Source of the DNA: Candidatus Poriferihabitaceae bacterium
Lineage (GTDB): Bacteria; Pseudomonadota; Gammaproteobacteria; Arenicellales; Poriferihabitantaceae
Assembly: GCA_965249835.1 (NCBI GenBank)
Contig: CBDFMY010000003.1
Span: 737,979 to 801,978, forward strand
Direction: 5' to 3'
DNA length: 64,000 bases
The position numbers and the translations under genes were made by a program. Under the pieces are notes generated by a model that saw only the letters and a program-made list of their open reading frames with translations, did not search any database and was not told the origin of the DNA. Shown here piece after piece: positions 29,412-39,718 of this stretch. Numbering within the stretch: position 1 is the first letter of the stretch; every line of letters starts with the position of its first letter.

Positions 29412-30041
29412 GTGACGACACCGCCAGTCACACCACCAGTTAATGTAACCGTCTACCGCTGGGCCGGGGCATGGGGACCATTCAAGGTCTCGATTCCTTG
29501 CGGCGAATGTTCGCTTACCGGCGATGTCATCACCGATACCTTCGACAACGAACTGAAAGGAATCCCGGTGCACCTTGAGATGCTCGACTGGCTCAGCCAC
29601 TGGTGGCAACCGTTACCACGCGGCGGCTGGCACGCCCCCATCGTCATGGTGGAAGGGCGCATCATCAGCCAAGGCAAAGCATTAAATCGCGGCGTGCTGA
29701 CCCAGGCGGTAATCGAAGCGCATGTCACCCGCGCTGCGGTCACGAGCAATGTTTTGTTTGGCAAACAAACTTGTCCGCACTGCGCACGCGCCAAAAGTTA
29801 TCTCGACCAGGCCGGCGTCGACTATGTGTATCACGATGTGGTCAAAGAACCGCGCGCATTGTATGAAATGCTGGCGCGAGTGAAACCGATCATCGGCGCG
29901 AAAACACCGGTAACGGTGCCGCAAATCTGGTTGGATGGAACATACATTGGCGGCGCCGATGAGTTATCGGAAGCCTTGCAAATGGAAATAGTCGCCAACA
30001 CCGACCGCGGCCAATGCTCGCTGTCGCCGGGGCGGTTGTAG
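29412..30041 (+). CDS. Two-domain redox protein with an N-terminal CGEC domain and a C-terminal glutaredoxin
   Basis: The start codon is GTG. The C-terminal half contains GKQTCPHCARAKSYLDQAGVDYVYHDV...VPQIWLDGTYIGGADEL, a glutaredoxin fold. The N-terminal half carries IPCGECS. Confidence 0.7.
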   Translation: MTTPPVTPPVNVTVYRWAGAWGPFKVSIPCGECSLTGDVITDTFDNELKGIPVHLEMLDWLSHWWQPLPRGGWHAPIVMVEGRIISQGKALNRGVLTQAVIEAHVTRAAVTSNVLFGKQTCPHCARAKSYLDQAGVDYVYHDVVKEPRALYEMLARVKPIIGAKTPVTVPQIWLDGTYIGGADELSEALQMEIVANTDRGQCSLSPGRL

Positions 30042-30188
30042 CCGCAGGGGTGACGGTGTCGGGCCGGCTGCCCGAAAAATGTGGTTATACCCAACCCGGC
30101 TTTTCCTTCACATTGCCCTTTTCTTTCGAAAAAACGAAACCTACCGATTCACTGAGGGCGAAACCGAACCAACCCAAAACGGACGGCA

Positions 30189-31799
30189 TCAGTTGGAGCG
30201 GGCGGCGATATATTGATCCACGGCGCGCAGGTAGGGCACATATGTTTCGGTGAAGTCCCATTCAACGGCATCCCACAGCCGATCTTCCAGCACCTCGGCC
30301 ATCAGGGAATAGTGCGTAATCATGGCTTCGACTATTTCCATGGGCGATGCGTCGAGCCGCGTCCCCAAGCCGAGGATGGCTTGGGTGAGTAGCCCGTTCA
30401 ACTCCATCAGGTATTCCACGTTGGCGCTACTGTCGAGGTCGGCGGCGGTGAATATCTTTTTTTCCACATCGTAAAATTCCGTGATGGCGTAGCGCACCAC
30501 CTTGACGGCCACCGCGAAATAACGGGGGTCGTTGAAACGCAGGGCTGCATCGGTAAACAGCTTTGCCACATGTGCATGATCCGACAACCCGCTGGTCGCC
30601 CGCCATTCGCTGTCAGCCAACGCATAGTAGCGATTCATGCCAGCGTTCGTCATCACCATCTCAGCCAGAAAATCAAGTGATTGCTTTATTTTTCTTTCCA
30701 GCCCCCGGTCTTCGTGGTAGTCGGCCACTTGAATCAAATAACCAAGGGCAATCGCCAGACGGTCGGTAAAGACTTTGTCCATTACCTTGGGCTTTGTTGC
30801 GGTGCTTCTGTGCTTCTTGTTGAGAAAATAATAGTTGGTGTCGGCTATCTGAAAACTCAAAAAAGTTCCCGGGTTTGCATGGAATAAAGTGGAGGTAAGG
30901 TAAGCCAGAGTGGCGTCCGCAGCTTTTTTCAATTTTGCTGAAGGAGCAAGCCGGTTCAATTGATACAACAAAAGAATTGCCCCTGCGTTCAAGTCGGAGA
31001 ATTTTTCGTAGTGCAAAATTTGCCAGTTGCGTTTTTCCGCATAACGAAAAAACCCCCCTTCCACCGGGTCGTAAATTCGATCAATCGCCCGCTCGAGGGT
31101 TTTGGCAATCCACTGCACTGCCTGCTCGTGGCCCGACGCGTCGGCATTTTCCAACAAATACAAAAAAGTTCGCGGCTGTATTGCCTTTTGTCCCTTGCCC
31201 AGTCCATATTCTTGCGGATCAAAATTATCCAACACGCCTTGGGTAAAAATCCCGGACAGGGCTTCCAAGTTGGCCGGCGTCAGACTTTTTGGCGGAGTGT
31301 ATTTGACCTGGTTTGACTCCATTCCGATGGCATGTTTTCCAACCCCCGCTTCAGCCGCCACTTCTTTTATGACATCCAGAAAATCGTCGCCGTATAACGT
31401 GCCGGCATACTGGTAGTAAATGGAGCGGTCCGGATTGAGAAACACGGTGTACGGCAGACCGGTGGCGTGGTATTGGGCGTACGCGGAACCATGCACATCT
31501 ACGTCAATAAATAGGTTGATAAAATTTTCATTCAAATAGTCCGCCACGTCCTCTCTGACCAGCGTGTTCTCCGCAAACTCGTGGCACCAGTGACACCACT
31601 CGGCCGAAAATAGGAGAAAATACGGTTTGTTTTTTTGCCCGGAATCAACCGGTGCGTCTGCGGATGCGCCATCCTGAAAACGTTGGAGGCCCGCCGTGGA
31701 GTATTCTTTGAAGTCAACCAGCGAATCCCGGTGTTCATAGGCAAGGCCCACAGAAACCTGCAAGATCATCACCAAAACAAGGTGCCGGGCAACTTTCAT
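30189..31799 (-). CDS. Secreted thioredoxin-domain protein (DUF255/YyaL-like, with an alpha/alpha-toroid C-terminal domain)
   Basis: I chose the start at MKVARHLVLVMILQVSVGLA (a signal peptide), just after the SCO1 stop codon. The protein contains KPYFLLFSAEWCHWCHEF, a thioredoxin-like CxxC motif. Confidence 0.7.
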   Translation of the reverse strand: MKVARHLVLVMILQVSVGLAYEHRDSLVDFKEYSTAGLQRFQDGASADAPVDSGQKNKPYFLLFSAEWCHWCHEFAENTLVREDVADYLNENFINLFIDVDVHGSAYAQYHATGLPYTVFLNPDRSIYYQYAGTLYGDDFLDVIKEVAAEAGVGKHAIGMESNQVKYTPPKSLTPANLEALSGIFTQGVLDNFDPQEYGLGKGQKAIQPRTFLYLLENADASGHEQAVQWIAKTLERAIDRIYDPVEGGFFRYAEKRNWQILHYEKFSDLNAGAILLLYQLNRLAPSAKLKKAADATLAYLTSTLFHANPGTFLSFQIADTNYYFLNKKHRSTATKPKVMDKVFTDRLAIALGYLIQVADYHEDRGLERKIKQSLDFLAEMVMTNAGMNRYYALADSEWRATSGLSDHAHVAKLFTDAALRFNDPRYFAVAVKVVRYAITEFYDVEKKIFTAADLDSSANVEYLMELNGLLTQAILGLGTRLDASPMEIVEAMITHYSLMAEVLEDRLWDAVEWDFTETYVPYLRAVDQYIAARSN

Positions 31800-31806
31800 T
31801 GTGCTT

Positions 31807-32406
31807 TCAGTGGCTTGGGGGGAGAACTTTTCTGATACGGGCGGCAATTTCCCGGCTGCCGGCGGACCATCCAATTCTCTCTTCCAGCAACTCGCCCGCC
31901 GAATCGACAACAAGGACATCAGTGGTGTGATAGATTGCGTATCCACGTTCCGAACTCGGCTCCTCTCTCCTTTCAAAAGCCACGCCGTATTTTTTTACCA
32001 CTTCGCCGAGGGTTTCCTCATCGGCGGTTACACCAATGATTTTCGGATGAAATAATTGCGTGTATTTTCGCAACACTTCCGGGGTATCCCGGCCGGGGTC
32101 GAGGCTTACAAACAACGCTTCGACCTTTTCAAGTTCTTCTTCGCTTAACTCCGAGAACACTTTTGATAAAGTCCACAGCACCATCGGGCAGACATCCACA
32201 CAAGACGTATACCCAAAAAATAACAGAACGACTTTGCCGCGCAATTCGCGGATGGAAACCGGGCCATCGAAGGATTGCAAGGTAACGTCCCCGCCCTTCC
32301 CGCGAAGTTGCCGGGCTTCCAATTCATGGGCGCCGGCAATGGTCGCCAATGAACCGTGCATCACAACAATCGCCAGTGCCTTAGTAATCCATTTCTTCAA
32401 GCACAT
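31807..32406 (-). CDS. SCO1/SenC family copper chaperone / thiol-disulfide oxidoreductase
   Basis: The 199-aa ORF has a signal/anchor sequence and FFGYTSCVDVCP, a CxxxCP motif. Confidence 0.85.
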   Translation of the reverse strand: MCLKKWITKALAIVVMHGSLATIAGAHELEARQLRGKGGDVTLQSFDGPVSIRELRGKVVLLFFGYTSCVDVCPMVLWTLSKVFSELSEEELEKVEALFVSLDPGRDTPEVLRKYTQLFHPKIIGVTADEETLGEVVKKYGVAFERREEPSSERGYAIYHTTDVLVVDSAGELLEERIGWSAGSREIAARIRKVLPPSH

Positions 32407-32803
32407 CGATCATATCCTTTTCGAGTTTGGTAGCCACCCGCATCAGCGGTTGTGAAGCATACAATGCCGCAAAGGCGGTTGGCTTGAGGAAAGAAATATT
32501 CACGTCGGCGGTTTCGTTTTTTTGGTATACGACGAATCTAACCGGCATAAAAACACCCGCGCTTAAATCCGCTGAAATTAATTCACTGCAACTGTTCAGG
32601 TTGCAAAATTCGACGATTTTGTAGTGCTTGAATTCGGCAACCACATCAATGCCGTGTTGACGTCTTTGGTGAATATTGTCGATGTGATTTATTTTGGTAA
32701 CGCGGTAATTGCGCGTCTTGATTTCCGTTACAAGGTCATCGAGCAGGTTGTCAAAATTTTTTGTTTTATATTGTTTACCAAAGATATCCCGGTTGATGTT
32801 CAC
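32381..32803 (-). CDS. DUF302 domain protein
   Basis: The 140-aa ORF has a pattern (YKIVEFCN...AGVFMPVRFVVYQ) typical of DUF302. Confidence 0.65.
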   Translation of the reverse strand: MNINRDIFGKQYKTKNFDNLLDDLVTEIKTRNYRVTKINHIDNIHQRRQHGIDVVAEFKHYKIVEFCNLNSCSELISADLSAGVFMPVRFVVYQKNETADVNISFLKPTAFAALYASQPLMRVATKLEKDMIDVLEEMDY

Positions 32804-32827
32804 GATGCCAGTCCAAAGAGAACTCGT

Positions 32828-33529
32828 TTACCCGGGCTTTTTCAGGGTTTTGATGTAATTGATTAAGTCCCAACGCTGGTTCTCCGGCAGAATCACCCCC
32901 CACGGCGGCATTTCATTGCGACCGTTGGTTATAAACCAGAACAAGTAACCGTCAGCGGATGAGTCGGCGTTGTTCCAAACCCAAAGTTGACGTGGAAAGG
33001 TCGTAATGCCATGCGCGGCGGGACCGTGGCCGCCACCATTCAAGCCGTGGCAAGTGGCGCAATAATGCTCAAACAACTGTTTGCCGCGGCCAATGGATTC
33101 GGCGGAAGCTTGGACCGGGTTGGTAACGACGGGTATGTCCGGCGGTGCCGGGCCGAATCGGGCGATCGCTTTTTGTTCTTCGTCGGTATAGGCGGCATTG
33201 TTCATCGGCGCGCCTTTATGGACGCGGTATTTATGCCCGGCCGGGTCTTCAATGGCGGCGATGGTTTTTTCAATGTCTTCTCTGGAATGCTGGTCTAAAT
33301 CGAACCGCACGGTCAGCACCGGCCAGCCCGATTCGGTGTTTTTCAGGTTCAGATTTACCACGCTGACCTTCGGCTCTTGTTCAAGTGCGGCGGTCAGCGC
33401 CCTTGGACTGGCCGGCGAAATCAATCCTTCTATTTCAAATTTTTCTGTAGTGAACGCGGCGAAAGCTCCGGTGCCGGTCATCAACGCGGCCAACAGTATC
33501 GTGCCGCCCGCGAACCATTTTTTTTTCAC
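32828..33529 (-). CDS. Periplasmic c-type cytochrome with an N-terminal ferredoxin-like (HMA-like) domain
   Basis: The protein has a signal peptide, a CATCHG haem-binding site and a distal MPPWG motif. Confidence 0.8.
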   Translation of the reverse strand: MKKKWFAGGTILLAALMTGTGAFAAFTTEKFEIEGLISPASPRALTAALEQEPKVSVVNLNLKNTESGWPVLTVRFDLDQHSREDIEKTIAAIEDPAGHKYRVHKGAPMNNAAYTDEEQKAIARFGPAPPDIPVVTNPVQASAESIGRGKQLFEHYCATCHGLNGGGHGPAAHGITTFPRQLWVWNNADSSADGYLFWFITNGRNEMPPWGVILPENQRWDLINYIKTLKKPG

Positions 33530-33544
33530 TTGGCTATCACCGAC

Positions 33545-33898
33545 TCATGAGGTGAATTTAATGTCTTCAGATATTTCCCAGCGCTCGCCGGTGTTATCAA
33601 TAAACACGACATTAACCGGGGCTTCCTTGACCGCCTTCAGTTTGAAGGTGAAAAGTGGATTATCTGCGATCGCCGAAGTCATGCTGAATCTGCTGACCAA
33701 AGCATCATCGTAATACACCAGCATGCTTCTGATGAAAGTAACCGGCACTGCACGATTAAACATCGGATTGGTCGAGGTATCCACCTGACCAAGCCCGGTA
33801 AAAGACGGGTGTTCAAATCGGACTTTTATCTTGACGACCTGGTCTTTCTTAACGCGCCGCCCAATTCTCATTCGCGGTGGTTTTATATTCGCTGCCAT
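33545..33898 (-). CDS. soxZ: SoxZ-like sulfur carrier subunit
   Basis: The 117-aa ORF has VVKIKVRFEHPSFTG...FIRSMLVYYDDALVSRFSMTSAIADNPLFTFKLKA, which matches the SoxZ family pattern. Confidence 0.7.
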   Translation of the reverse strand: MAANIKPPRMRIGRRVKKDQVVKIKVRFEHPSFTGLGQVDTSTNPMFNRAVPVTFIRSMLVYYDDALVSRFSMTSAIADNPLFTFKLKAVKEAPVNVVFIDNTGERWEISEDIKFTS

Positions 33899-33932
33899 TT
33901 GTTTCCTCCTGCGTGAATTCCAGCAAAAATTT

Positions 33933-35546
33933 CTATCGGGGTCCCAATCGCGGCGTTATTCTTGCATCAAGCGTCGCGTTGAGCGGTGAATTTTCGCGGA
34001 TGTGTTCGATTAATTCTTCCACGAATACCTTGCCGGTGTCAACCACATTGCGGGCGCCGAACAACGGGTTTTCCTGGAACCGCGTATTCACCGAGGCAAC
34101 CGTATAACTCTTGTCCATCAGGAACGGCTGGCCGCCGGTCATGGTCATGGATGTGATTCGTTCGCCCGGCGCGTTGGCGCGGTCATGCACAATATCCAAC
34201 CCGGAAAATCTAATCATGTCCCCGCCAACCCGTGAATAAGGGTCTTCGTTAGTGACCCCGTCGAGAATGTTCTCAAGCAAGGTTTTGATTTCTCTGCCCA
34301 TCATGGAGTAGGTAATGATACGTCCGCCGGTGGGAACGATATTGTAAACATCTTCCACGGTAATTTCGCCGGGCATCAACGTGGCACCGTAACGCCAGGC
34401 GGGGAAAAAACTAATATCGGTCGCCTGCATACTGCGCAATGAATCGGTAATGAGATTGCCCACGGTGCTTTGCCAGTAATCCCGGCGATAGAGCAATGCA
34501 TCGGTATGCCCGATAACTTCATTCAACCGGTCAGCGTGTGGTTGGTATGCCTCCTCAACCAGTCTGGCGACTTCCGGGTCTGCGGCGGTGAAGTCTTGGT
34601 TAACCTTGATCAATTGGTAATCAAAACTTTCGACGCGTTTGTTTTTCACTTCAAGGTCGAGGCTTGAGACAAATTTTCCGAGCGTGCCACCTTCATAAAT
34701 AATGGTGCCGTTCCACACTACCGGATCGAAAACCGGGTTATGCGTATGCCCGCTGATGATTACGTCTATGCCATCGACGCGCTGTGCAAATTTCTGGTCC
34801 ATACCGAAACCCGCGTGGGAGATAAAAACGATCAAGTCGGGGTTTTCTTCGAGTTTGATTTGCTCGATTAATTCTCTGGCTTCGCTTTCCTTGATGCCAA
34901 AATTCCACCACTTGGCGCTACCGCGAATTGCCGTGGTAAGCGCCGTCCACGGGTAGGTCATGCCCACCACCGCCACCTTGAGATTGCCGACTTTCTTTAT
35001 TATGTATTGCTCCAGCACCGGGTCGCCCCAGTCTTTGTCGGTAAGGTTGTAGGCAATAACCGAAAAATTGGCTTGGTCGATGAGGTCTAAAAAATGCTCC
35101 TTGCTGTAAACAAATTCCCAGTTGCCCGGCACCATGGCATCATACCCAATCGCGTTCATCACCTTGACCATTGACCGGCCCTTGTCGAAAGCGGATAGAC
35201 CGGAGCCGTGCCAAGTGTCGCCGCTGTCCACAATAAGCGTTTTTCCGGGTTTTTCCGCGCGAAATTTTTTGATTACCGTTGCGACATGCGCCATGCCGCC
35301 AACTCTGCCCTCATAAACCGCCTTTTGCGCGTAGTCACCATCCGATGATTGAACGCCCCAGGGTTTCGGCTCATCCAAATGCCGGTAATAAACCGGACGC
35401 AGATAACTGTGAATGTCATTGGTGCTGATGATGCGAATTTGCTCGGTGTCCGCCACCACCGCCGATTGACCAACACCAAACGTAAGCAAGAACACAAGTG
35501 GCCAGCCGACAAACCCGCTTCTTTGGCGACCACCACCGACAGACAT
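33933..35546 (-). CDS. SoxB-like bifunctional metallophosphatase/5'-nucleotidase family protein
   Basis: I chose the start at MSVGGGRQRSGFVGWPLVFLL (35546), 5 nt after the soxY stop codon. The protein contains STNDIHSY, GDTWHGSG, GNWEF and ISGHTH metallophosphatase motifs and a 5'-nucleotidase C-terminal domain. Confidence 0.7.
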   Translation of the reverse strand: MSVGGGRQRSGFVGWPLVFLLTFGVGQSAVVADTEQIRIISTNDIHSYLRPVYYRHLDEPKPWGVQSSDGDYAQKAVYEGRVGGMAHVATVIKKFRAEKPGKTLIVDSGDTWHGSGLSAFDKGRSMVKVMNAIGYDAMVPGNWEFVYSKEHFLDLIDQANFSVIAYNLTDKDWGDPVLEQYIIKKVGNLKVAVVGMTYPWTALTTAIRGSAKWWNFGIKESEARELIEQIKLEENPDLIVFISHAGFGMDQKFAQRVDGIDVIISGHTHNPVFDPVVWNGTIIYEGGTLGKFVSSLDLEVKNKRVESFDYQLIKVNQDFTAADPEVARLVEEAYQPHADRLNEVIGHTDALLYRRDYWQSTVGNLITDSLRSMQATDISFFPAWRYGATLMPGEITVEDVYNIVPTGGRIITYSMMGREIKTLLENILDGVTNEDPYSRVGGDMIRFSGLDIVHDRANAPGERITSMTMTGGQPFLMDKSYTVASVNTRFQENPLFGARNVVDTGKVFVEELIEHIRENSPLNATLDARITPRLGPR

Positions 35547-35550
35547 CGGC

Positions 35551-36015
35551 TCAGCAACCGCCGGCGGCGACCTTGGTATCACTGCTGACCGCCCATTTCC
35601 CATGTTGATTACATTCGGCCACAACCCAGACCGAGCTTTCTCCGCCGTTGAGCCGGATCTGCGTACCGATGAACGCCTCACCGTTGGCCGGCGAAAAATA
35701 AAACTTCCCCTTGGTCTGCACCGGGTCGTTGAAACCGATAATCTGTATGCTCTTTATGTAGTGGTGCTCTTCCATCGGGTGTTCCATCTCCACTTGTATC
35801 GGCGCCTGGCTTCCATCTTCCACCACCGGCGGAAGCGTTACCTTGACCAAGTGCATGCGCTCCATCTCGGTCAAATTTTTCGGGTCAACCACAAAGTTGA
35901 ATGCGCTGGCATGCGCCGAATCCGGCAAGCCAAAACCCCAGGAAATCGGAACGGCAATGCCGCCGACCATTGCATAGCGCAGAAAATCGCGCCGGGTATG
36001 TGTGTGTTTCATCAT
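35551..36015 (-). CDS. soxY: SoxY-like sulfur carrier protein (Tat signal, C-terminal GGC)
   Basis: The 154-aa ORF has a twin-arginine motif (TRRDFLRY) and ends ...KVAAGGC, with the swinging-arm cysteine at the C-terminus. Confidence 0.7.
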   Translation of the reverse strand: MMKHTHTRRDFLRYAMVGGIAVPISWGFGLPDSAHASAFNFVVDPKNLTEMERMHLVKVTLPPVVEDGSQAPIQVEMEHPMEEHHYIKSIQIIGFNDPVQTKGKFYFSPANGEAFIGTQIRLNGGESSVWVVAECNQHGKWAVSSDTKVAAGGC

Positions 36016-36097
36016 TAAAAATTCCTCGCTTTTAGCGATACACGACCTGAAGCCCGAACATCAAGAGCCACAGGTCGCGCTTAAAAAATTAATCGCA

Positions 36098-37396
36098 TCA
36101 GTTTAATGCCGCTCGAAGCGCTTCCGGACTGGGCACCCACCTGACACCATTGTTCTGAATACCCGCATCGAGGTCGGTGGTAATCACATCCCACTCCATG
36201 GGATCGGCCGATGAGGTATCCACCAAGGTTGCAACTGTTTCTTTTTTGGTGGAAACCACCGCACGGGTACCCTTCGGGTTGAAGGCGATATTGTGCGGAC
36301 CCAACCCGGTATGGATGTTTTTGATGGCAATATCTTCGCGGGTGTCGATTACCGTGATGATGTCCGATTTCCCGGATTCATTGGCAAACAAACCGTAGCG
36401 CGTGTTGGCCGGATTCAGGTAAAAACGATTGGCGTCAGGCCCGGTTTCGATTACCTTGAGCAATTCCAGTTTGTCCATACCGATCACGGCAACGCTGCCC
36501 GCCTTGCGCAAGCCGGCATAGCATTTGGAACCATCCGGCAGACAAGTGATATTGCCGCCACCGCCGGGGACTTTCACGGTTTTGACCGGCTTGCCGGAGT
36601 CGGTATCCAGAAAAACAACCACGCCTTTGCCTGCGGCCATGAAGTATCTGCCATCGGGAGACATGGCGCCGGCCCGGCCACCGGGGATGGGAATCATGCT
36701 GATTTCTTTGCGCGACTTGACATCAACGACAGACACCCCTTTCGGCTCCTGCTGGCACGTGGTGAAAACCTTGGAGTCGTCCAGAGTGAACATTGCATCA
36801 CGCGCACCGTGGCAACTTATCTCAATGGTCTCGAGCGGCCTTCTGGTCGCGGTGTTCAGGAAAGTCAAATAACCGTGCTCCTTGTCCAGAATATTGCCAA
36901 CCACCGCCAGCGGCTTGGTGTAAGCAAAGCCCACATGCAACGGGGCGATGACCTTTTTCCCATTCATGCTGACACCGAACTTGTCCACCACTTCCTGGCT
37001 AAGCAAATCAATGGTCCAGAATTGATCGCTTTCATAGCGCTGGGAAGACCACGCATAGCGTGCGCCGGGTATAATCCAAATGTGATGATTTCCGGTTTCG
37101 CCCATGGCTATTTTTTTGATGGTCTCACCTTTCTCATAATCCACCACCGAAACCGTCGGCTCACCTTGATTATCAATCAAAAAATTTCCCGGCATATCTC
37201 GTACCGCCGCCCAATCCATGCGCACGGTGTTCTGCGGGTCGAGGAACACCAACGATTGATATTCCTCGATGCTCATGCCTTCGGTGGGCGCGCCGAATCT
37301 CTGGGCGGCGGCACTACCGGCGCCGACCAACATGGCGACCCCAAACACAGAAACGAAGGCCAGCATTGCCGACCGTATCAATGATTTTTCTTTCAT
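36098..37396 (-). CDS. Secreted beta-propeller protein (YVTN/NosZ-like repeats), possible metalloenzyme
   Basis: The 432-aa ORF has a signal peptide, repeated beta-strand blades, and histidine motifs GNHHIW, HVGFAY, CHGARD and GPHNIAF. Confidence 0.55.
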   Translation of the reverse strand: MKEKSLIRSAMLAFVSVFGVAMLVGAGSAAAQRFGAPTEGMSIEEYQSLVFLDPQNTVRMDWAAVRDMPGNFLIDNQGEPTVSVVDYEKGETIKKIAMGETGNHHIWIIPGARYAWSSQRYESDQFWTIDLLSQEVVDKFGVSMNGKKVIAPLHVGFAYTKPLAVVGNILDKEHGYLTFLNTATRRPLETIEISCHGARDAMFTLDDSKVFTTCQQEPKGVSVVDVKSRKEISMIPIPGGRAGAMSPDGRYFMAAGKGVVVFLDTDSGKPVKTVKVPGGGGNITCLPDGSKCYAGLRKAGSVAVIGMDKLELLKVIETGPDANRFYLNPANTRYGLFANESGKSDIITVIDTREDIAIKNIHTGLGPHNIAFNPKGTRAVVSTKKETVATLVDTSSADPMEWDVITTDLDAGIQNNGVRWVPSPEALRAALN

Positions 37397-37470
37397 GACT
37401 TCCTCCCACGCAAATGCGTATCTATTATGAAACTACAAAATTAAACAAGTAACGGTTTATATCATCGTTG

Positions 37471-38664
37471 CTACCAGGCTATAACAAATTTCTTCCGCCC
37501 CTCATTCCACACCACCAAAAAATACCACAGCAACATTATGCCAATAACGGATGCGATTGACAATTTCCAACTCAAGATATCGGGCAAAAATACCGCGCTG
37601 CCGAGTTTCATCAACCACCCGCTTTGTTCCAGCCAGGTCCTGAACAGCGCGCCGGATAACGCAAAGGCGACGATGGCAACCCATAGTTTTATCTGACCTT
37701 CCCCGGCACGCCACAGGCAGCCGGTGGCACAACCACCACTAAATGACATGCCAACGCCGAAAATCACCCCGCCGGCAAAACTGCCGAACCAAAAACCAGG
37801 CGACACAGAAGCGTCCCAATCGCGCAGGTCGGTCCACTTCAGAATGGAAAAACCGATTACGCTGATTACGATGGCAAGAATTACCGCTTTGGTCATTGCG
37901 CCGTCTCCGGTCAGGAACGGCTCCCGAAAAGCTTTCACAAAACAGAAACGAGAGCGTTGCATGACGATGCCAATCATCAGCCCGAACAGCAAGAATCCAC
38001 CCCGAACCGGATAATCAAAGCGGTCGTAGACCAAAGCCAAAACCAAGCCACCGACCAGAAACAGCACACCCAGAATTTTTTGCCGTTGCAGCCGGGCAGA
38101 AGTCTGTTCCTTCGCTACCTTTGCGGGGGAAGTCGATGCGGAAAAATTGAGATAGGTAACTTCCAGAATGAGCAGGCGCAAGCCGATGTAAACGCCCAGC
38201 ATGAGGCCCAACATCATCGCCATCCCGGCCATCGACAACGCACTGATGGCGCTGAAAAACCCGCCGATGTTGCAACCAAATGCCATCGCCGCGCCGATAC
38301 CCATCAGCGCCCCGCCAACCAACCCCTTGAACAACTCAAACGGCGGCACTCCCCGTATTCGAAACTGCCCGGCGAGCAAGGCCGCCACCAGCGCGCCGGC
38401 AATCACGCCGAAATTCAACAAGGAAGTGGAATACAGATACGGCGAAATAATAACTTTGTCAGCGACCCCAAGGCTGTTGAACACCCAATCCCCCCAGTTT
38501 CTGACACCATCCGCCGCGCTCCAGGGTTTTTCAAAAGCGAATAACAAGATATTGGCCACTGCCAGCAACAGCCCCGCCACCCACGCCGCCCACTGCTTTC
38601 CGAACAACGCAACGCGCACGTTGTCCAGGGTAAGTCCGATGCCGTGTGTGCTGGAATTTGACAT
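37471..38664 (-). CDS. YeeE/YedE family sulfur-compound (thiosulfate-type) transporter
   Basis: The 397-aa ORF is polytopic and has two conserved FGCNIGG/SGGCATG-type cysteine motifs (AFGCNIGGF and FSGGCATGC). Confidence 0.8.
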   Translation of the reverse strand: MSNSSTHGIGLTLDNVRVALFGKQWAAWVAGLLLAVANILLFAFEKPWSAADGVRNWGDWVFNSLGVADKVIISPYLYSTSLLNFGVIAGALVAALLAGQFRIRGVPPFELFKGLVGGALMGIGAAMAFGCNIGGFFSAISALSMAGMAMMLGLMLGVYIGLRLLILEVTYLNFSASTSPAKVAKEQTSARLQRQKILGVLFLVGGLVLALVYDRFDYPVRGGFLLFGLMIGIVMQRSRFCFVKAFREPFLTGDGAMTKAVILAIVISVIGFSILKWTDLRDWDASVSPGFWFGSFAGGVIFGVGMSFSGGCATGCLWRAGEGQIKLWVAIVAFALSGALFRTWLEQSGWLMKLGSAVFLPDILSWKLSIASVIGIMLLWYFLVVWNEGRKKFVIAW

Positions 38665-38938
38665 TACTATCGGCTGGCTTTCTGAATGGTTTGAACCGAC
38701 AAAACCAATTAAAGTCGGTCTTTGGATTGTATTGAAACTCTCCTTACGACCACCACACTATTCTAGTGCCATGCCCAATCACAATACCTATAATGGGATA
38801 GAACGAACCATACTTGAGGAGTATAACTTCTCATTCCTGAAATGGACATAGCGCAGAAAAATATCCGAGGCTACGCCGACGCACGACCCGCGGCCTTTAT
38901 TTCCTCTGTCTCTCCTCACTCTTTTTGCACAATTCGCG

Positions 38939-39718
38939 CTAACTACACTTACTCTCCCCGCAGTTGAGGCAGGTCAGGCAGTTGTCCATGACGATCATGG
39001 CTTTGTTGTGACACTTGTTGCATAACACCGCGCCTTCGGGAAAAGCACTTTCGGTGTCGCTGGGGTCGGCTTTGATGACTTGCTGTTGTTCGAACTCCTT
39101 GCGCTTTTGATTGACCAGTCGTTGCTGGTGTTCGTCCAGGCCCGGGGAGACGATGAGGCCGATCATTTTCAGGTGGGATTCGATGGCGTCGCCGATTTCG
39201 GCCACCAGCGATGGAATGAATTTACCGCCCTTGCGGAAATAGCCGCCCTTCGGGTCAAACACGCTTTGCAATTCCTCCACCAGAAAGGTGACATCGCCGC
39301 CTTTGCGAAACACCGCCGAGACGATCAGGGTCAGGGCCGAAATCCATTGATAGTGATCCATGTTTTTGGAGTTGATAAACATCTCAAACGGGCGACGCTT
39401 TTCATATGGCGTCCCGGGGTTGAGCACAATGTCGTTAATGGTGATGTAAAACGCGTGTTCGGAAACCGGCGTTTTGATTTTGTAGGTGCTGCCGACCAGC
39501 ATTTCCGGTCGTTCGACCTTCTCGTGCATGTGCGCGATTTTGCCGATGCTGGCAACGGCATCACGGCTTTTGGGAGGCGCTTCGACCTGGGTTGCGGCTT
39601 GGCTCTGGGCTTGGTCTTCGACTTGGTTGTCAGCCCCGCCGTCGACCCTGTCATCAGCCCCGTCATCAGACTTGGCGATGTCGTAGCCGACAATTTTTTT
39701 CTGGATTTTTATGCTCAT
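38939..39718 (-). CDS. nrdJb: Class II (adenosylcobalamin) ribonucleotide reductase, C-terminal split subunit NrdJb
   Basis: The 259-aa ORF contains TYKIKTP...AFYITIND...RPFEMFINSK (a TSCPD-type domain) and a C-terminal CxxC...CxxC tail. It is immediately downstream of nrdJa. Confidence 0.75.
   Translation of the reverse strand: MSIKIQKKIVGYDIAKSDDGADDRVDGGADNQVEDQAQSQAATQVEAPPKSRDAVASIGKIAHMHEKVERPEMLVGSTYKIKTPVSEHAFYITINDIVLNPGTPYEKRRPFEMFINSKNMDHYQWISALTLIVSAVFRKGGDVTFLVEELQSVFDPKGGYFRKGGKFIPSLVAEIGDAIESHLKMIGLIVSPGLDEHQQRLVNQKRKEFEQQQVIKADPSDTESAFPEGAVLCNKCHNKAMIVMDNCLTCLNCGESKCS

Follow-up and report, generated by a model that had tools for sequence, protein, structure and literature searches.

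A conserved Sox-like gene cassette as a candidate SoxXA-independent route of sulfur oxidation

A 64,000-nucleotide stretch of the genome of a sponge symbiont, Candidatus Poriferihabitaceae bacterium (assembly GCA_965249835.1, contig CBDFMY010000003.1, forward-strand positions 737,979 to 801,978; hereafter the window), carries nine co-oriented open reading frames (ORFs) on its minus strand, at 30189-38664. Their order is YeeE, a beta-propeller, SoxY-like, SoxB-like, SoxZ-like, cytochrome c, DUF302, SCO1, and thioredoxin-DUF255 (Trx-DUF255). These nine genes probably form a self-contained periplasmic sulfur-oxidation module: a Sox-type system that does not need SoxXA and that stands in for canonical Sox. 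Stated in its general form, and held with slightly greater assurance, the proposal is that a SoxXA-independent, Sox-type module releases sulfate on the periplasmic side and delivers sulfane sulfur either to the reverse dissimilatory sulfite reductase pathway (rDsr) or to the sulfur-oxidizing heterodisulfide reductase-like pathway (sHdr).

A more specific version is tentative, and somewhat short of an even chance. It envisages a new type of Sox pathway, in which SoxY is itself a metalloprotein with a His4Cys site of the superoxide reductase (SOR) type, and in which a copper-dependent, histidine-lined propeller replaces SoxXA. Abundant uncultured marine bacteria, Chloroflexota, and Armatimonadota would use it.

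Conservation and genomic company of the cassette

A locus scan with one genome per species gave 41 loci. The nine-gene order is identical at every locus with a long enough contig, some 40 in all. The hosts include Arenicellales, Candidatus Poriferihabitaceae (sponge symbionts), other Gammaproteobacteria, SAR324, and Binatia. Recurrence of the same order in about 40 independent loci argues that the arrangement is not due to chance. Moreover, because the order is constant across several phyla and the flanks are unrelated, the nine genes behave as a functional, transferable cassette. Flanking genes are kept only between close Arenicellales relatives, and no shared regulator emerged when the flanks of related loci were compared. 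The original prediction, made from the letters of the window, had proposed a coherent, non-canonical Sox-like operon; this is borne out, and its gene order proves to be conserved elsewhere.

At one locus, on a gammaproteobacterial chromosome (L021:15024-16433), a transposase gene of 469 codons, from an insertion sequence (IS) element, lies between the DUF302 and SCO1 genes. The other cassette genes there look intact.

Deeply diverged versions, seen on the contigs of propeller relatives and of distant SoxY-type proteins, occur in Chloroflexota, Armatimonadota, and metagenomes, with the same core in shuffled order: the propeller (26-34% identical), an SOR-type SoxY, SoxZ, cytochrome c, YeeE, and the SoxB-like protein. 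Loci L092 and L099 share the order propeller, SoxY, SoxZ, cytochrome c, YeeE, SoxB-like, and cupredoxin, with SCO1 and a small thioredoxin as extras in L099. The L097 locus (Chloroflexota) encodes a split YeeE, a 532-residue propeller, SoxY, SoxZ, cytochrome c, the SoxB-like protein, an LpqE/PCuAC-like protein (PF04314), and SCO1. At L098 (Armatimonadota; L098:1-12651) thioredoxin comes first, followed by the same core. Its surroundings, with genes for electron-transfer flavoprotein (ETF), CCG/Fer4 (HdrBC-like) proteins, two GCV_H (LbpA-like) proteins, and the lipoate ligase LplA, look like a cytoplasmic sulfur-oxidation cluster of the sHdr type. Because the distant variants keep the six genes in other orders, these six are taken as the functional core. 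Copper-handling and thiol-redox accessories (cupredoxin, SCO1, and PCuAC) recur around it, so that the link to copper chaperones, first drawn from the SCO1 gene in the window, extends to the distant variants.

The phyletic pattern suggests that the cassette substitutes for the canonical system and that its SoxB-like protein does the job of SoxB. Canonical SoxB is found neither in the symbiont's own genome nor in any of 19 other cassette genomes (0/19), all of which have the SoxB-like protein of the cassette type. Among 81 genomes of the same order, 42 encode canonical SoxB, six the cassette type, and none both; in the class as a whole, canonical SoxB is present in 76 of 201 genomes. The symbiont's own genome, which is 97% complete, holds DsrAB. 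It contains no second SoxY and no other SoxB homologue, and it gives no match to SoxA (TIGR04484) or SoxC (SoxX and SoxD were not searched there). The absence of soxA, soxX, and soxCD had been noted for the window; for SoxA and SoxC that statement now covers the whole genome.

DsrA is encoded by 15-16 of the 19 other carriers; its distance to the cassette is about 4 kb in one SAR324 genome. SoxA is present in five of the 19 and missing from 14. Each of the five SoxA chromosomes is complete, and in each the cassette SoxB-like protein is the sole SoxB homologue in the genome. Four of the five have SoxA and a canonical SoxY within about 4-6 kb of the cassette. At one locus read in detail, L095, a canonical soxXYZA operon is convergent with the cassette and contains no soxB.

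The cassette proteins and their candidate metal sites

Protein identities were assigned through Pfam and NCBIfam profile matches. Together with the ORFs, these uphold the nine minus-strand identities given in the original prediction, apart from two translation starts. The long SoxB-like and Trx-DUF255 ORFs, as first called, overlap their upstream neighbors; orthologue comparison places the most likely starts at M46 (35546), 4 nt past the soxY stop, and at M60 (31799), respectively. With corrected starts, intergenic distances range from a 26-nt overlap (DUF302/SCO1) up to 82 nt. The genes and selected codons are:

37471-38664, minus strand: YeeE/YedE-family (SoxT-like) membrane sulfur transporter, 397 residues (PF04143, 186.8 bits)
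36098-37396, minus strand: secreted YVTN-type beta-propeller, 432 residues (AlphaFold 2 model and sub-threshold propeller matches)
37082-37087, minus strand: propeller codons H104-H105 (GNHHIW), invariant
36935-36937, minus strand: propeller codon H154, invariant
36293-36295, minus strand: propeller codon H368, invariant
35551-36015, minus strand: SoxY-like carrier with twin-arginine translocation (Tat) export, 154 residues, C-terminus KVAAGGC (PF13501, 64.3 bits; PF01880, 35.4 bits)
35602-35853, minus strand: span of the SOR-type ligands of the SoxY-like protein (H55, H79, H85, C135, H138)
35851-35853, 35779-35781, 35761-35763, 35611-35613, and 35602-35604, minus strand: ligand codons H55, H79, H85, C135, and H138, respectively
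35554-35556, minus strand: codon of the terminal carrier cysteine C154 (GGC invariant at the end of complete orthologues)
33933-35546, minus strand: SoxB-like dinuclear metallohydrolase with general secretory (Sec) export, about 537 residues from M46 (TIGR04486, 416.9 bits)
33545-33898, minus strand: SoxZ-like partner, 117 residues (PF08770, 57.1 bits)
32828-33529, minus strand: secreted monohaem cytochrome c, CATCH at residue 157 (PF13442 and PF00034)
32381-32803, minus strand: DUF302 protein, 140 residues, no obvious signal peptide (PF03625, 38.8 bits)
31807-32406, minus strand: SCO1/SenC copper chaperone or thiol-disulfide oxidoreductase, 199 residues (PF02630, 118.4 bits)
30189-31799, minus strand: secreted thioredoxin-DUF255 protein (DsbH/YyaL-like), about 536 residues from M60, CHWC (PF03190, PF13098, and PF13899)

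The SoxY-like carrier matches two Pfam families above their cut-offs, SoxY and Desulfoferrodoxin (PF01880 cut-off, 22.2 bits), and scores 51.3 bits with TIGR04488, for which the equivalog cut-off is 125. Its Tat motif, TRRDFLR, and the terminal KVAAGGC are invariant in orthologues, as is the carrier cysteine itself, and in all complete orthologues nothing follows the GGC. The Tat signal and C-terminal GGC had been read correctly from the window. An SOR-type metal site on the same protein had been overlooked: residues H55, H79, H85, C135, and H138 align with the ligand positions of neelaredoxin 4brj and desulfoferrodoxin 2ji2, in an analysis that also aligned SoxY 4uwq_B. The corresponding motifs are E-R-M-H, HPMEEHHYI, and ECNQHGKW. 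The five-ligand set is kept in 33 of 36 orthologues, and the distant proteins of L090 and L092 retain all five. None of the five is present in the canonical SoxY near the cassette at L095, a protein that ends in GGCGG. A search from the L092 SoxY gave 96 clusters, nearly all with both Pfam domains; several are annotated simply as SoxY. Fold matches to the AlphaFold 2 (AF2) model list neelaredoxins first and then SoxY, a weak indication given a predicted local distance difference test score (pLDDT) of 58.

In the alignment, the SOR ligand loop and the C-terminal arm fall at opposite ends of the last strand, so the arm is not assumed to reach the site within the same molecule. Iron would fit Tat export, with its cytoplasmic loading. 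The metal may also be copper, because NosZ is exported by Tat and receives its copper in the periplasm.

Judged by its sequence, the SoxB-like protein is neither an ordinary nucleotidase nor a bona fide SoxB, but represents a clade of its own in the SoxB family. Its match to TIGR04486 (SoxB; cut-off 550 bits) begins at model position 102 and reaches 416.9 bits, versus 130 bits for UshA. Similarly, its nearest PDB entry is Thermus thermophilus SoxB, 2wdc (208 bits, versus 87 for 5'-nucleotidases). Placement with ordinary periplasmic nucleotidases, raised originally as a possibility, is not what these comparisons favor. The Pfam domains are 5_nucleotid_C and Metallophos, and the metallophosphatase motifs NDIHS, GDTWHG, GNWEF, SHAG, and GHTH are all present. 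Where nucleotidases have the histidine of GNHE, the alignment has tryptophan in both the SoxB-like protein and 2wdc. A tree of the cassette proteins, 15 canonical SoxB proteins, and 15 other paralogues places the cassette proteins in their own clade (support 100), apart from the canonical SoxB clade (100). Export differs as well: a Tat motif is present in 30 of 30 canonical SoxB proteins and in one of 32 of the cassette type, and the window protein has a Sec-type leader.

Other SoxB-like paralogues of the class (140-368 bits) were considered as members of the same system and rejected; their identity to the cassette protein does not exceed 37%, and they occupy other gene contexts. One such group, at L074-L077 (genomes G043, G057, G019, and G059), is a second SoxB-like clade, sister to that of the cassette (TIGR04486, 347-368 bits; 35-37% identical). 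Its genomes also have canonical SoxB, and no other cassette gene is nearby.

The propeller belongs to a tight family and is unusually conserved. Orthologues are 65-83% identical, and the best 120 database clusters are 74-100% identical. Clustering at 50% leaves what is essentially a single full-length cluster, along with four relatives at 25-36% identity. All of its profile scores are sub-threshold: the YVTN repeat; TIGR03866 (59.6 bits, cut-off 287); and L-NosZ (52 bits, cut-off 700). The AF2 model (pLDDT 82) has about 32-34 strands, and therefore about eight blades; its best TM-scores in Foldseek, 0.63-0.65, are to the eight-bladed propellers of NirF, NirN, and NirS.

Nine propeller residues (H104, H105, H154, H368, R199, D200, N282, N323, and N369) are invariant in 38 orthologues and also in five relatives at 26-34% identity, all of which adjoin an SOR-type SoxY. 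The GNHHIW pair and the further histidines picked out in the original prediction are therefore real features, and the constellation survives at that distance. Three arginines (R241, R324, and R419) and four cysteines (C195, C214, C285, and C292) are invariant within the tight family only. In one relative, P0148, H104, H105, and H368 are all replaced together. According to the register of the YVTN protein 1l0q and the DSSP strands of the model, each conserved polar residue would stand at the start of an innermost blade strand. The residues would thus encircle the opening of the central channel, where active sites usually lie. The propeller therefore appears to carry a conserved candidate metal site, distinct from the CuZ and thiocyanate dehydrogenase centers. 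Copper is suggested by context: SCO1 with an intact CxxxC-H motif, and PCuAC and cupredoxin in the variants.

Distant propellers (L097-L099 and L092) have a C-terminal extension with two conserved cysteines (VPYFCGVP...GDC), which has no counterpart in the marine cassette propeller.

YeeE scores below the NCBIfam equivalog cut-offs for TsuA and YedE. Three of its cysteines (C131, C241, and C312) are invariant in 41 sequences, distant variants included. The SoxZ-like protein is above the cut-off for PF08770; its TIGR04490 score is 52.4 bits versus the cut-off of 76. In the cytochrome c, a single CATCH motif follows about 110 residues with no domain assignment. All orthologues retain this N-terminal domain (residues 26-135; FEIEGLISPASP..., EDPAGH), for which neither Pfam nor a sequence comparison with the PDB gives a match; it is missing from the short cytochromes of distant variants (127-132 residues). 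A degenerate heavy-metal-associated (HMA) fold was considered for it and is unsupported by either kind of match.

Among the accessory proteins, DUF302 has a precedent in Acidithiobacillia, where DUF302 genes sit between soxA and soxB (PMC5248467). The SCO1 residues C69-x3-C73 and H160 are invariant in 28 orthologues. The cassette SCO1 (G000:C3:769869-770246) is the only SCO1/SenC protein above the Pfam cut-off in the 2.77-Mb genome; the next match scores 20 bits. The CxxC motif of Trx-DUF255 does not vary among 25 orthologues, and leaders of the Sec type are present.

Around the cassette, in 29900-39100, promoter-like sites show no excess (6, versus 7.0 in shuffled sequence), and terminator-like matches marked no operon boundary. 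A glutaredoxin-like gene at 29412-30041 is convergent with the cassette end. None of the 41 related loci has its counterpart beside the cassette, and it is probably outside the system.

A proposed mechanism and its alternatives

From the genes present, their conserved residues, their distribution among genomes, and the company they keep there, we infer the following catalytic roles, metals, and substrate. The SoxY-like/SoxZ-like pair would carry sulfur on the terminal cysteine, Cys154. An inorganic sulfur compound (most likely thiosulfate, possibly sulfite or sulfide) would be coupled oxidatively to Cys154 without the SoxXA haem enzyme. The catalyst would be the His4/Arg-Asp site of the propeller, probably with copper loaded by SCO1, and/or the SOR-type His4Cys center on SoxY. 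Within the general proposal, the assignment of the propeller as a copper-dependent loading enzyme is plausible, yet more doubtful than not. Electrons would leave through the monohaem cytochrome c, and the SoxB-like hydrolase would release sulfate. The leftover sulfane sulfur would then be relayed into the cytoplasm by the three cysteines in the YeeE/SoxT-like channel, and oxidized there by rDsr (or by sHdr in other lineages). Trx-DUF255 and SCO1 would keep thiols reduced and metal sites loaded.

For YeeE there is a precedent: work from the Dahl laboratory showed that transfer of sulfur from a periplasmic truncated Sox system to cytoplasmic sHdr requires YeeE-like SoxT proteins, and YeeE proteins of the SoxT type reportedly import sulfane sulfur bound to SoxY (PMC11582611). 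Given this precedent and the rDsr/sHdr linkage, the role of YeeE is most likely product import.

Several points weigh against this interpretation. Five genomes keep soxXYZA together with the cassette. This is the chief argument against a cassette that is just a thiosulfate system on a par with SoxXA; it suggests more than plain redundancy, and perhaps a different substrate. The phyletic counts come from related, non-independent genomes, so the pattern is taken as suggestive rather than statistical. As the only clear SCO1 in its genome, the cassette SCO1 may also serve cytochrome oxidase, and so would not be dedicated to the cassette; alternatively, it may act as a thiol oxidoreductase alone. 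Copper is assigned to the propeller only indirectly, and the clustering of its four histidines is judged from strand-start positions in a model. Finally, three of the 36 SoxY-like orthologues have one ligand changed (His to Asn in L013; His to Asp in L033 and L035), and the SoxY-like model is of low confidence.

The survival of soxXYZA in five genomes bears directly on one alternative, which we consider unlikely. Here the propeller would do the work of SoxCD: as a metal-dependent dehydrogenase or oxygenase, it would take SoxY-bound sulfane sulfur to the sulfonate. Complete oxidation of sulfide, sulfur, or thiosulfate to sulfate would then occur in the periplasm, with YeeE used for sensing or assimilation. 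Retention of SoxXA and SoxYZ beside the cassette fits a propeller that does something other than the SoxXA step; the symbiont's own genome lacks SoxC; and the constellation of four histidines and an aspartate is compatible with a non-haem metal oxygenase. However, the strong association with rDsr and sHdr, along with a three-cysteine YeeE that is universal in the core, points to sulfane sulfur going to the cytoplasm. Furthermore, loading would still require another protein in the 14 carriers without SoxA.

The mechanism advanced originally is improbable. It made the propeller a copper enzyme akin to thiocyanate dehydrogenase or NosZ, which would oxidize a substrate imported by YeeE (for example, thiocyanate) and pass sulfane sulfur to SoxYZ. 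Its attractions are the adjacent histidine pair at an innermost strand, as in propellers of the CuZ type, and the copper chaperones and cupredoxins of the cassette family. In addition, there are weak matches to L-NosZ and to a Tat-exported propeller, 8q9x/8yu5, which is presumably thiocyanate dehydrogenase. In the latter alignment three histidines of 8q9x pair with N282, N323, and H368, so that one is matched by histidine and two by asparagine. Membership in either family was rejected: those enzymes bind their multinuclear copper center through seven histidines on a seven-bladed propeller, whereas only four histidines are invariant here and the model has roughly eight blades; the top 50 Foldseek matches include no entry named as either enzyme; and the L-NosZ score is far under its cut-off. 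The import step fares no better. YeeE crosses the inner membrane, and all of the other components except DUF302 carry export signals, so an imported substrate would leave the propeller's compartment. With the topology wrong for substrate, import of product fits better (PMC11582611).

Sulfite enters a third alternative, also improbable, as the substrate of a periplasmic oxidizing or detoxifying cycle: sulfite would be coupled to the SoxY cysteine and freed as sulfate by the SoxB-like protein, which would be relevant where symbionts and heterotrophs break down taurine and other sulfonates. It is established biochemistry that SoxXA, SoxYZ, and SoxB alone oxidize sulfite, leaving no sulfane sulfur. 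The hosts are indeed sponge symbionts and marine heterotrophs, and taurine-derived sulfite is important in sponge symbionts (PMC10356861). Such a cycle would have no need for YeeE, however, and would leave the rDsr and sHdr association unexplained. Moreover, sulfite from rDsr or taurine is cytoplasmic, and the symbiont described handles it by Apr/Sat (PMC10356861).

Least probable by far is periplasmic defense against reactive oxygen or sulfur species, with the SoxY-like protein as a Tat-exported SOR re-reduced through its thiol arm, thioredoxins, and cytochrome c: the full ligand set, the conserved Glu and Lys/Arg before the first histidine, the PF01880 score above cut-off, and the earlier prediction of Tat-exported SORs (PMC3116461) would suit it, but it would leave unexplained why SoxZ, SoxB-like, and YeeE are obligate partners, why the terminal GGC arm is invariant, why canonical SoxB is excluded, and why there is a link to rDsr/sHdr.

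A SoxXA-independent module that exports sulfane sulfur to the cytoplasm remains the preferred interpretation. Full-text searches found no paper that describes the cassette, an SOR-type SoxY, or a SoxXA-independent Sox system, so that the cassette would represent Sox-type sulfur oxidation in a form with no published description found. In a large survey of Sox, the additional soxB paralogues located outside sox gene clusters number only 65, and their contexts are not described (PMC13500833).

Canonical sox and dsr markers are the usual basis for inferring sulfur oxidation in animal symbioses and the dark ocean. Because every carrier examined has the cassette in place of canonical SoxB, and because of its rDsr/sHdr link, a sizeable bacterial group may oxidize reduced sulfur unseen by such surveys. 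If so, searches with canonical soxB or soxXA markers miss these oxidizers, relatives of UBA868, SAR324, and sponge symbionts among them. The compact six-gene core also provides a setting in which to study sulfur loading on SoxY and transfer to the cytoplasm. The SoxY-like protein forms an evolutionary bridge between superoxide reductases and SoxY, and is possibly a redox-active carrier. The propeller is a candidate metalloenzyme family with no characterized member.

Comparison with known systems

A YVTN propeller, a SoxYZ-like carrier, and a small cytochrome c also occur together in the trio associated with pyrroloquinoline quinone (PQQ) dehydrogenases in ped/xox clusters: TIGR03866/PedA2, the fused SoxYZ-like TIGR04557, and the cytochrome c550 PedF. 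The cassette differs in its scores, which fall far short of the cut-offs of these models (59.6 versus 287 bits and 54.9 versus 140 bits), and in having no PQQ dehydrogenase, and the trio itself has neither a SoxB-like gene nor SOR ligands.

With NosZ (CuZ) and thiocyanate dehydrogenase, the cassette propeller has in common its secretion, the adjacent histidines, further histidines at the starts of innermost strands, copper chaperones nearby, and a cytochrome c or cupredoxin partner. It differs in the number of invariant histidines (four, not seven), in the roughly eight blades of its model, in the asparagines at two 8q9x histidine positions, and in having no significant membership score.

The likeness of the SoxY-like protein to SOR center II (neelaredoxin/desulfoferrodoxin, PF01880) is closer. 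The His4Cys ligands lie in the same motifs (...H, HPMxxxH(Y)I, and CNxHG.W), within an immunoglobulin-like beta-sandwich fold, and both have the conserved Glu and Lys/Arg before the first histidine. In the cassette protein, however, one residue is inserted between the Lys/Arg and that histidine. It also differs in its Tat export, its SoxZ partner, its swinging arm with a C-terminal cysteine, and its constant sulfur gene context.

Canonical Sox is distinguished from the cassette at several levels. The cassette SoxY ends in GGC, not GGCGG, and bears SOR-type metal ligands; its SoxB-like protein is exported by Sec, not Tat, and belongs to a separate clade; and its SoxY, SoxZ, and SoxB all fall under the NCBIfam equivalog cut-offs. 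In the marine cassette soxB lies between soxY and soxZ, and an obligate histidine-lined propeller is joined by SCO1.

The closest known system is the truncated Sox (SoxXA-SoxYZ-SoxB, with no SoxCD) of, for example, Allochromatium vinosum and Hyphomicrobium denitrificans, where it is coupled to rDsr or sHdr. Both have a SoxY/SoxZ-type carrier with a C-terminal cysteine, a dinuclear hydrolase of the SoxB family, a c-type cytochrome as outlet, and a YeeE/SoxT-like transporter. SoxCD is missing from both, both co-occur with rDsr or sHdr, and accessories of the DUF302 and thioredoxin types are found in some sox clusters too. Unlike truncated Sox, the cassette stands without SoxXA, as judged by SoxA, in the symbiont's genome and in 14 of 19 other carriers.

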